Below are positions 15,126-17,000 of a DNA stretch of 32,000 nt, piece by piece. The notes below the pieces were generated by a model. It was not told the origin of the DNA. It saw only the letters and a program-made list of their open reading frames with translations, and ran no database searches. The number at the start of each line of letters is the position of its first letter. The first letter of the stretch is position 1. Source of the stretch: Mycolicibacterium smegmatis. Its GTDB lineage: Bacteria > Actinomycetota > Actinomycetes > Mycobacteriales > Mycobacteriaceae. A program made the position numbers and the translations under genes. The DNA lies in contig NZ_LN831039.1 in NCBI RefSeq assembly GCF_001457595.1, positions 4,260,001 to 4,292,000 on the forward strand. The letters are read 5' to 3'.

Positions 15126-17000
15126 TCATACCGATTGCAGGGCACGCAGCAGGTCCACCAGACCGCTGCCCTGGAACGACCGGTCGCGTCCCAGCGACGT
15201 CGCGGACTCGGTGAAGATCCGCTTGACGGCCTCGGGCCTGCTGACGAATTCGCGTTGCACCGACAGGAACGCCGCGACCGCGCCCGACACATGCGGTGCG
15301 GCCATGCTGGTGCCGCTCTCCTCGATGTAGACCGGCACGCCGTCGGGCACGTCGATCTGGTTGGTCACGGTGCTGCGGCGCGTCCCGGCAGCCGCTGACG
15401 TGATGCGCTCGCCCGGTGCCACGAGGTCGGGTTTGGCGCGGCCGTCGCCGGTCGGCCCGCGCGACGAGAAGTACGAGACGCCGAATGTGTGCGGCGAACT
15501 GCGATGGGTGGATCCCACGGTGATGGCGCTCTCGGTGTTGCCGGGATCGTTGATGGTCATGTCGGCCGTGAACTTCATCGAGTCCTTGCTCGACGCGACG
15601 TTGAGCGACACATAGCCGGAGTTGCCTGCCGCGACCACCACGACGACACCCGAGCGCACGGTCTTGTCGACCTCCACGCACAGCGGGCTCTGGCCGCATG
15701 CGTACCACTTGGCGTCGAACGGATATCCCAGGCTGAGGTTGACGCCGTGGATTCGCGGCACGCGTTCGCTGCCTGCGTTGAGCTCCCGGACGTATGCCAG
15801 CGCCGCCATCACACGGCTGACCCTCGACACGTGATCACCGGGACCGAGCACCTTGAGGCTCACGAGCTTCGCCCTGGGCGCCATGCCCGCGAGCCGGTCG
15901 GGATCGACCTCGCGCGGCTGCATGATGGCATCGCCGCCTTCCGGGGCGTTGAGCCGTTTCTCGGCGACAACGACTTTGCCGGTCCAGCCGACGAGTCCGC
16001 CGGCGATGATGCCCGCGACGTGGGTGCCGTGCCCGTCGGTGTCGGTCAGCGGGGCTGCGCCACCGGTGAAATCGCGGTGGAGGTCTGCGACTGACGGGTG
16101 GTCGAGATTCTGGTGCGCGGCGAAGTGCGGATGCCTCTTTTCGATGCCCGAATCCACGACGGCCCATACGATTCCGTCGCCGAAACTGTCGAAGGACCGT
16201 TGCGCGGCGACCGCTTTGACGGTGCGTGAGGACGCATCGATCAACGGCTGTACCTCGAAGTCCGGCCAGATCCGGTAGATGGCGCGCGCCGGCCAGATCT
16301 GCGGCACCGCATCGGCGGACACCAACTGTTTGATCTGGGCCGCGGTCAGATCACCGACCATGAACTGATCGGCGAGGTCGCCCGGTTCCCCTGCCGCGCC
16401 GATCAGTGCCCACAGGTTCCGGACCCGATCTCTCGCCGCCTGCGCCGTCGGCTGGAACCCCAGGTTGAGCTCGATCATGATCGGAATCGGGCGCTCGTCG
16501 GGCACCTCGGCCATCCGCTCACGCAGCGGCGGTGTGACGACACCGGCGAGGACGGGATCGCGCCGTGGACGTTCGTCGCGTGCGGGCCGCGGGGTGAGGG
16601 CCCGCCCGGCCGGGACCGTCCTGGTCGTCTTCTCGGCTTCGCCGGCGTCCTGGGCACAGGCCCGTTCGGCCGCGCGGCGCCCGGACTCGGTCAACGCGAT
16701 CTCCTGGGGTCTGCCCTTGTTCTTCGCAATGAGCAGGCGGCGCCTGCGGAGTTGACGTACGGCGTCGTCGACGCGGTTGTGCCAGAACGGCCGGTTGTTC
16801 TCGTATTGACGGTCACGTTCGACGAACTCCGCCGCGTAACGCGCCGCCACGGCCTCTTTGAGGGTCGCGGCGTCCGTCGGGTGTTGCTCGAGGCCGTCAA
16901 GCGTGGCCAGTGCGCAAAGCACCCGCGACGGCCACCTCGATGACTCGGTCGAATCAGTCTCGTCCACAACGGCCCCCTCGGCACGGATCCGATGGCTCAT
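15126..17000 (-). CDS. Intracellular S8 (subtilisin-like) serine peptidase with N-terminal Mrr_N-like winged-helix domain
   Basis: The catalytic triad is WAVVDSGIEKRHP (Asp), DGHGTHVAGIIAGG (His) and GTSMAAPHVSGAVAAFL (Ser), with oxyanion Asn in VNLSLG. There is no signal peptide. The N-terminal ~115 aa align by eye with the E. coli Mrr N-terminal wHTH (details in the findings). The ATG at 17000 lacks an SD. A GTG at 16967 preceded by GAGGGG is an alternative start. Confidence 0.88.
   Translation of the reverse strand: MSHRIRAEGAVVDETDSTESSRWPSRVLCALATLDGLEQHPTDAATLKEAVAARYAAEFVERDRQYENNRPFWHNRVDDAVRQLRRRRLLIAKNKGRPQEIALTESGRRAAERACAQDAGEAEKTTRTVPAGRALTPRPARDERPRRDPVLAGVVTPPLRERMAEVPDERPIPIMIELNLGFQPTAQAARDRVRNLWALIGAAGEPGDLADQFMVGDLTAAQIKQLVSADAVPQIWPARAIYRIWPDFEVQPLIDASSRTVKAVAAQRSFDSFGDGIVWAVVDSGIEKRHPHFAAHQNLDHPSVADLHRDFTGGAAPLTDTDGHGTHVAGIIAGGLVGWTGKVVVAEKRLNAPEGGDAIMQPREVDPDRLAGMAPRAKLVSLKVLGPGDHVSRVSRVMAALAYVRELNAGSERVPRIHGVNLSLGYPFDAKWYACGQSPLCVEVDKTVRSGVVVVVAAGNSGYVSLNVASSKDSMKFTADMTINDPGNTESAITVGSTHRSSPHTFGVSYFSSRGPTGDGRAKPDLVAPGERITSAAAGTRRSTVTNQIDVPDGVPVYIEESGTSMAAPHVSGAVAAFLSVQREFVSRPEAVKRIFTESATSLGRDRSFQGSGLVDLLRALQSV

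Follow-up and report, generated by a model that had tools for sequence, protein, structure and literature searches.

A subtilase with a predicted N-terminal Mrr_N-like winged-helix domain is encoded beside a DUF900-type hydrolase in Mycolicibacterium smegmatis

Introduction

Protease-effector pairs are abundant in antiphage defence, and their proteases carry diverse sensors (Evans et al., 2025, preprint, PMC12642450). For example, the LcHydrolase encoded beside a caspase-like protease is a zymogen that is activated by two cuts excising its middle fragment, and proteases of family S8 (subtilases) are the partner of one clade of MBL effectors (PMC12642450). Earlier comparative work had noted that this type of alpha/beta hydrolase is always found together with caspase-like domains (Kaur et al., 2020, PMC7159879). 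Here, we analyze a 32,000-nucleotide stretch of the Mycolicibacterium smegmatis genome (RefSeq assembly GCF_001457595.1, contig NZ_LN831039.1, positions 4,260,001 to 4,292,000 of the forward strand; “the window” below), in which a gene for an S8 protease with a predicted N-terminal winged helix-turn-helix (wHTH) domain is directly followed by a gene for an alpha/beta hydrolase of the DUF900 type. The wHTH domain is related, at the level of family profiles, to the Mrr_N domain of Type IV restriction enzymes, and the two genes form a candidate sensor-protease-effector module.

The pair resembles LcCaspase-LcHydrolase in several respects. Both consist of adjacent, co-oriented genes for a protease and an alpha/beta hydrolase, the protease carries variable N-terminal inputs, and in the hydrolase a poorly conserved middle separates an N-terminal piece from a catalytic C-terminal piece. 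LcHydrolase is ~300 amino acids (aa) long, whereas the DUF900-type hydrolase has 443 aa; and LcCaspase-LcHydrolase is a defence module, while the S8/DUF900 pair is without a clear defence-island context. Neither Mrr_N-like nor EF-G-like sensors are among those described for protease/alpha-beta-hydrolase modules. The searchable literature gave no description of the S8/DUF900 pair, or of an Mrr_N-like or EF-G-like sensor on such a protease.

Results

Fold and conservation of the N-terminal domain

An AlphaFold2 model of the N-terminal domain (N-domain) was built from an alignment of 27 sequences, whose members are 26-70% identical to the domain of the window protein, and has a mean predicted local distance difference test (pLDDT) score of 89.8. 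In this model the domain is a winged helix, with three helices (residues 14-36, 44-58 and 72-86, the last preceded by a short turn helix) and a beta-hairpin wing (strands 90-92 and 100-103), followed by a helix at 105-119. Eleven positions are invariant in the 27 sequences (W23, R26, V51, A56, F59, R64, P71, W73, V77, L84, and G107). Full-length relatives found in Mycolicibacterium, Mycobacterium, Nocardia, and metagenomes fall into more than 100 clusters and retain the N-terminal region (96-98% coverage, 52-98% identity). Foldseek comparison of the model with the PDB gave wHTH structures for almost all of the top 50 matches, at a probability of ~1.0, a best E-value of only 7e-3, and template modelling (TM) scores of ~0.5-0.7 on the target. 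These matches include SSV1 F-93, AF1382, MepR/MarR, PadR, TubR, histone H1, and the winged-helix domain of MUS81. A sequence search of the PDB with the N-domain profile returned only weak MarR matches (E ≥0.065) and no solved relative of Mrr_N.

Links to the Mrr_N family

Pfam Mrr_N (PF14338) has a gathering cut-off of 29.5 bits, and the window protein stays below it, with 14.9 bits at full length (E 0.03) and 19.4 bits for the isolated domain (E 0.0012); the sub-threshold winged-helix families on residues 32-112 are DUF6293_C and Mrr_N. Among the 27 N-domains, 11 match Mrr_N (E<0.1, best E 2.4e-7), and any other family is matched by at most two. One relative (P0008) lies above the cut-off with 30.1 bits, and others come below it with 27.0 (L080), 26.3 (P0005), 26.2 (P0018), and 23.9 bits (P0012). 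The L080 domain represents the most divergent sub-type (start ‘MALTPL..LGDLILVAL’), and its best match is still Mrr_N. The original prediction had looked to Pfam for a match of this kind; it is found at the level of the family, where one relative passes the cut-off, while the window protein itself is sub-threshold.

Profile-to-profile comparison with hhalign placed the N-domain against 18 Pfam-verified Mrr_N segments, including that of the Escherichia coli enzyme EcoKMrr, with a probability of 98.5% (E 3.8e-15) over 80 columns. The alignment brings together the aromatic residue before helix 3, helix 3 itself, the wing, and the ‘LT..G’ turn. Motifs of E. coli Mrr that had been named in the original prediction are present in the EcoKMrr translation, which holds ‘EPVLRYLA’, ‘YKNRAGWAHDRLKRAGL’, and ‘CLTPAG’. 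EcoKMrr alone gave no significant match to the N-domain profile, so the link requires profiles and the N-domain is best called a divergent member of the Mrr_N superfamily.

An exhaustive HMMER search of 1.84 billion representative proteins with the N-domain profile (E ≤1e-3) gave 64 matches in total. The full-length matches that were tested belong to the S8 family described here, many others are short fragments, and a few have no Pfam match. From the weak tail of the list, 11 matches lacking an S8 domain were tested, and 10 of these carry Mrr_N above the cut-off, often as 2-4 tandem copies. Tandem copies inflate the whole-protein E-values of such matches, and the single domains score 10-27 bits. 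Among non-proteases, these proteins (P0180, P0168, P0182, and others, with 2-4 tandem Mrr_N domains) are most closely related to the window's domain; one of them combines three copies with a Schlafen AlbA_2 domain, and another starts with a SeqA_N-like segment. Overall, the family-level profile links and the winged-helix model bear out the proposal that residues ~20-115 of the S8 protease form an Mrr_N-like wHTH domain.

Net charge is positive in 20 of the 27 N-domains; for helix 3 and the wing taken together, this holds in 22. Given this charge and the membership in the Mrr_N family, the wHTH most likely binds nucleic acid.

Reading frame and start codon

The protein sequence quoted in the original prediction is the exact translation of the S8 open reading frame (ORF; Table 1), in which residue 20 starts at 16943 and residue 115 ends at 16656, i.e., residues 20-115 correspond to 16656-16943 on the minus strand. 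GC contents of 0.70, 0.52, and 0.81 at codon positions 1, 2, and 3 of this segment are typical of coding sequence in this genome (68% GC). Upstream, a stop at 17034-17036 closes the ORF. Ahead of W23, the first invariant residue of the domain, there are only two candidate starts, the ATG at 17000 and a GTG at codon 12, the latter separated by a 6-nt spacer from a Shine-Dalgarno-like sequence (Table 1). Homologues begin 7-20 residues ahead of W23. Because both candidates precede W23, the domain is retained whichever is used. Thus, a true start farther downstream that removes the domain, which had been named as the event that would undo the prediction, is not the case.

Linker, prodomain-like module, and catalytic domain

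Behind the wHTH, an Arg/Pro/Glu-rich linker varies in length and sequence among relatives, and its residues 128-145 have pLDDT scores below 50. The stretch that had been described as a disordered linker is thus of low confidence over residues ~128-145, whereas DPVLAGVVTPPLRERM (residues 148-163) is conserved and belongs to the core of the protein. Relatives without a wHTH carry an equivalent of this lead-in motif (‘..IVSDALL..’, ‘..AIALPLL..’), and the peptide could dock on the catalytic domain.

Residues 148-252 are the beginning of the core that is common to wHTH-less relatives. In the full-length AlphaFold2 model, strand segments at 172-178, 207-218, and 241-252 and helices at 186-199 and 220-230 make up the prodomain-like module, with pLDDT scores above 90 for residues 172-252. 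The best Foldseek matches of the full model are the prodomain-bearing subtilases ProN-Tk-SP (3afg), PvSUB1 (4tr2), and EpiP (3qfh). Since these are subtilase pro-forms, the middle module is probably an inhibitory or chaperone prodomain. A DNA-reading module on a subtilase, as first proposed, is right as to the presence of the wHTH, which is joined to a prodomain-like module and not directly to the catalytic domain. These three prodomain-regulated subtilases and the intracellular subtilisins likewise have a beta-alpha-beta-beta-alpha-beta module ahead of the catalytic domain. None of them has a winged helix before the prodomain, however, and most are secreted, whereas the window protein has no signal peptide. 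The hydrolase partner has none either, and we rejected the reading as a secreted protease on these grounds and because a soluble wHTH lies at the N-terminus.

The junction that follows (residues 253-273) is highly conserved, and R[AS][IV][YF]R[IV]WPD can be used as a search pattern. Pfam Peptidase_S8 (PF00082) covers residues 274-608 with 143.7 bits (cut-off 21.8), PDB subtilases match the catalytic domain, and the Asp-His-Ser triad (D283, H324, and S565) and the oxyanion Asn (N460) are invariant in 38 sequences. The protein matches the PADLOC ‘subtilase’ model with an E-value of 1.2e-48 and the IetS models weakly.

The N-terminal region could also be a mere extension of the subtilase pro-region, i.e., an intramolecular chaperone without a ligand, in which case the similarity to Mrr_N would be a coincidence at the level of fold. 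The sub-threshold Pfam score of the window protein, the lack of a match between the profile and EcoKMrr alone, and the weak Foldseek E-values would fit such a region. This explanation is very unlikely, given that the variable, disordered linker parts the wHTH from the prodomain-like module, that half of the family lacks the wHTH and folds without it, and that the profile-level links to Mrr_N are specific and reciprocal.

A co-encoded alpha/beta hydrolase

The hydrolase gene begins 15 nt past the stop codon of the S8 gene, and its product matches Pfam DUF900 with 25.3 bits (cut-off 20.5). A scan of one genome per species (185,579 species genomes) recovered at least 576 stretches encoding relatives of the protease; the counts of pairing and of conserved neighbours given in this section rest on 82 loci. 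In 76 of these, the S8 gene is immediately followed by the hydrolase gene, and most of the remaining loci are cut contigs. When all neighbours were clustered all-against-all across the 82 loci, which have differing flanks, the S8 protease and the hydrolase were the sole conserved genes. Genomes with the pair belong to Actinomycetota, Acidobacteriota, Cyanobacteria, Bacteroidota, and Proteobacteria (including Gammaproteobacteria), with copies on megaplasmids of Rhizobium, Burkholderia, and Rhodococcus. Phage genomes gave distant S8 matches only, and the module is not phage-borne. Pairwise distances among the proteases and among the hydrolases are correlated (r = 0.89, 2278 pairs).

The motifs HGWNN, GHSFG (with S279), HD (with D347), and GAHSDI (with H424) are kept in at least 90% of 69 hydrolase sequences. 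In between the N-terminal part and the nucleophile elbow lies a poorly conserved and partly gapped segment of ~130 residues (~100-220). A sequence search of the PDB with the hydrolase gave no match. Many NCBI records label homologues of this protein ‘serine-threonine protein kinase’, which looks like a propagated misannotation because the protein has an alpha/beta-hydrolase triad and a Pfam DUF900 match. Two loci show another arrangement, in which a wHTH-less S8 gene without a DUF900 partner is divergently adjacent to a gene for a fusion protein of 1130-1150 aa that combines a GMC oxidoreductase with an alpha/beta hydrolase (L068 and L075; Table 1); in L075, a pro-kumamolisin-type peptidase is encoded downstream.

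Variable inputs and effectors

Outside one large actinobacterial group, relatives of the protease start at a position equivalent to residue 120-170. With their ORFs closed upstream there is no room for the domain, so these proteins are truly without a wHTH. When the protease bodies were placed in a neighbour-joining tree, one half of it consisted of wHTH-bearing proteins, and the few exceptions are at contig ends or possibly reflect a broken reading frame (L053). This distribution points to a wHTH that was acquired once, early in the actinobacterial clade, and retained down to ~47-50% identity of the body. The domain combination is thus unusual, as originally thought, but it is not unique to this gene; it is the defining trait of a large clade in the actinobacteria.

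The proteases of two Streptomyces species have EFG_III-EFG_IV-EFG_C (Pfam E 1e-24 to 1e-38), fused in frame, in place of the wHTH. Joining a fragment of the ribosome factor EF-G to a subtilase is no less odd than joining a wHTH to it. Another relative, P0146, is 46% identical to the window protein over its full length, including the wHTH, and bears a TIR_2 domain at its C-terminus. No hydrolase gene was found downstream of it. Next to the P0146 gene is a SLATT_3/DUF4231 gene, and the surrounding element also has an integrase, an HTH_17 excisionase-like gene, DUF3631, SSB, and DpdA. Variable inputs on a constant protease, together with the absence of the effector gene where an effector domain is fused, are a hallmark of modular conflict systems.

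We also considered a split architecture, for which a ‘standalone’ wHTH gene of 125 aa (P0121, L091:5001-6823) was the candidate. This gene overlaps an S8 gene of 482 aa, and it was rejected as most likely an assembly frameshift artefact because the same contig has other split genes.

The wHTH might not read DNA at all and might instead act in protein-protein contacts, in oligomerisation or hydrolase docking, or as an autorepressor that binds an operator of its operon. Protein contacts are often made by winged helices, most of the invariant residues of the domain lie in its core, some copies are acidic, and there are precedents of peptidases with HTH regulators, such as CapP-CapH. The nearest profile relatives are nevertheless Mrr_N domains, whose known context is DNA-targeting enzymes, and the wHTH is unnecessary for docking since wHTH-less relatives retain the same hydrolase partner. 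For an autorepressor, no palindromic operator is evident: the 296-bp region upstream of the S8 gene has no convincing operator or promoter and only one weak 11-nt inverted repeat. We regard a wHTH of this kind as quite unlikely.

Other genes in the window

Divergent from the S8 gene, an ORF of 371 aa has the third-codon-position GC signature of coding sequence and no Pfam match, and its stop overlaps the start region of a gene for a large LuxR-family regulator (Table 1). Related Mycolicibacterium genomes have the regulator gene in synteny with the S8 pair. Farther along, a 1354-aa fusion protein looks like a single-polypeptide, assimilatory nitrate-reductase-like enzyme.

Table 1. Features of the wHTH-S8/DUF900 locus, variant fusions in related loci, and other genes. 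Positions without a prefix refer to the window; L numbers denote related loci.
Feature	Position	Strand	Evidence or remarks
wHTH-prodomain-S8 protease gene	15126..17000	-	ATG-start ORF, 624 aa; Pfam Peptidase_S8 and homologues
Possible alternative start GTG (V12, 16967-16965) with Shine-Dalgarno-like GAGGGG (16979-16974)	16965..16979	-	Sequence reading
Mrr_N-like winged-helix domain, residues 22-119	16644..16937	-	AlphaFold2, invariant residues, Mrr_N profile links, Foldseek
Variable Arg/Pro/Glu-rich linker, residues 120-147	16560..16643	-	Low pLDDT; length and sequence vary in alignment
Lead-in motif (DPVLAGVVTPPLR) and prodomain-like beta-alpha-beta-beta-alpha-beta module, residues 148-252	16245..16559	-	pLDDT 86-96; Foldseek; conserved
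Lead-in motif DPVLAGVVTPPLRERM, residues 148-163	16512-16559	-	G153, V154, P158, and L159 nearly invariant; pLDDT 86-91
Junction (residues 253-273) and S8 catalytic domain, D283/H324/N460/S565	15129..16244	-	Invariant residues, Pfam, PDB subtilases, PADLOC
DUF900-type alpha/beta hydrolase, 443 aa, S279 (GHSFG), D347, H424	13779..15110	-	Pfam, pairing, conserved triad
EF-G III-V-S8 fusions, Streptomyces	L063:7002-9494 and L078:26-2314	+	Pfam; hydrolase gene still downstream
P0146, wHTH-S8 relative with C-terminal TIR_2 domain	L083:6001-8508		TIR_2 E 4e-12
GMC oxidoreductase-alpha/beta hydrolase fusion loci	L068:4228-7629 and L075:4306-7752	-	wHTH-less S8 gene divergently adjacent
371-aa ORF	17297-18412	+	Coding GC signature
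Large LuxR-family regulator (LAL type)	18268-21111	+	AAA_16, TPR, and GerE domains
1354-aa fusion protein	21117-25181	-	Fe4S4/Molybdopterin/Molydop_binding with flavodoxin, FAD, and NAD-binding reductase domains

Discussion

The analysis establishes the N-terminal domain and its family link, the pairing and co-variation of the protease and hydrolase genes, the swappable N-termini, and a TIR variant without a hydrolase gene. We give a probability of about 50% to a sensor-protease-effector module in which the wHTH acts as input or targeting domain, the cytoplasmic protease is latent and locked by its prodomain, and the co-encoded hydrolase is the substrate. The protease would be made in a latent form, in which the prodomain-like module restrains the catalytic domain, as its fold and the very conserved junction suggest. 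The wHTH, tethered to the prodomain by the linker, would serve as the input or targeting domain and most likely binds nucleic acid, as is thought for Mrr_N in Mrr; most copies are basic, especially in helix 3 and the wing. Binding of a ligand, or clustering on DNA, may then release the inhibition. The active protease would cleave the hydrolase, which has an intact Ser-Asp-His triad and the 130-residue poorly conserved insert, and by analogy with the caspase/alpha-beta-hydrolase module (Evans et al., 2025) this cleavage would activate a zymogen, giving an esterase or lipase that is probably toxic. The module is best read as following the same logic as the published zymogen systems, from which it would differ in the class of protease, the larger hydrolase, and new input domains.

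Several observations weigh against this sensor-protease-effector module. The partner of LcHydrolase is caspase-like, while the partner here is an S8 protease. The prodomain-like module has no Pfam I9 match. Acidic N-domains occur in a few cases, and conservation is not strong on the surface of helix 3. Half of the protease family, and most of the wider family, is without the sensor domain, so the core would not need a sensor to work, and the TIR variant is a single cluster. In addition, the neighbourhoods are mostly of a housekeeping kind and do not look like defence islands. Among 136 non-redundant flanking proteins from 36 loci of the wHTH clade, ~4 look defence-like (a cyclase of the CBASS type, SspH, mad6, and a kinase match). 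Further loci, including three metabolic ones, lie among phosphotransferase system, aldehyde dehydrogenase, or thiamine genes. The pair in the window is itself flanked by genes for an M20 peptidase, PEBP, a protein of unknown function, and the LuxR-type regulator.

Such overwhelmingly metabolic or regulatory flanks are what would be expected of a DNA-tethered housekeeping or stress protease, in which the wHTH places the S8 domain at the nucleoid to degrade DNA-bound proteins (compare Lon and SPRTN/Wss1) and the hydrolase is a co-functioning enzyme with no immune role. The basic wing and helix 3 agree with this, as does the synteny of the locus in related Mycolicibacterium, where 11 loci have the same upstream genes. 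It leaves unexplained, however, why the protease is strictly paired with an alpha/beta hydrolase and co-varies with it, why a TIR variant lies in a mobile element, why EF-G III-V can replace the wHTH, and why the family is spread patchily over several phyla and megaplasmids (at least 576 relatives in the species genomes scanned). We therefore consider a purely housekeeping role unlikely.

A more specific form of the sensor-protease-effector reading, which we advance tentatively and likewise consider unlikely, is that the wHTH-S8/DUF900 pair acts in abortive infection, as a system not yet described. The wHTH would then sense foreign or modified DNA and the subtilase would cut a hydrolase zymogen into a lethal enzyme, with the same core rewired in other lineages to EF-G III-V, possibly for docking on the ribosome, and to a TIR effector. 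Comparison with EcoKMrr and other Type IV enzymes, which join Mrr_N (PF14338) to Mrr_cat, is instructive here. The order of elements is alike (helix 1 with ‘..VL..L’, the aromatic residue before helix 3, the hairpin wing, and ‘LT..G’), whereas the output of those enzymes is a PD-(D/E)XK nuclease and that of the window protein is a prodomain-bearing S8 serine protease. The window's domain also belongs to a divergent subfamily that is mostly below the Pfam cut-off. An identification of the protein as the restriction enzyme Mrr was rejected, since the rest of it is Peptidase_S8, without a nuclease domain. Nor does a nuclease family appear among the listed Pfam matches of flanking genes.

Cytoplasmic S8 proteases are known as processing enzymes of other conflict systems, namely the S8 clade of the MBL modules (PMC12642450), the subtilases of gasdermin systems (bioRxiv 10.1101/2021.06.07.447441), and IetS. 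The partner in the window differs from all of these, being neither a gasdermin, an MBL nuclease, nor an IetA ATPase. Membership in IetAS was rejected: the NCBIfam IteS model scores 44.4 bits against a cut-off of 900, and there is no ATPase family among the examined genes that flank the pair. CapP, which acts with CapH, is alike in concept, in that nucleic acid activates a bacterial immune protease. CapP is, however, a protease of an unrelated family that acts on a transcription regulator and not on an enzyme zymogen, and it has no sequence relationship to the protein studied here.

Were the sensor-protease-effector reading right, S8 proteases and DUF900 hydrolases would be a new protease class and effector pairing for the logic by which a protease unlocks a latent death enzyme, and a DNA-binding domain of the restriction-enzyme type would be a new kind of input. 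The family would also offer a natural series of sensor swaps (none, wHTH, and EF-G III-V) and an effector swap (TIR) on one core, and thus an experimental handle on how input domains control a prodomain-locked subtilase. As a practical matter, the recurrent misannotation of the hydrolase partner as a kinase can be corrected. If the abortive-infection reading is true, the system would combine a sensor like that of Type IV restriction with an output that is proteolytic and not nucleolytic. On the broader sensor-protease-effector reading, the widespread and poorly understood Mrr_N domain would also gain a second, non-nuclease context in which its ligand may be found.

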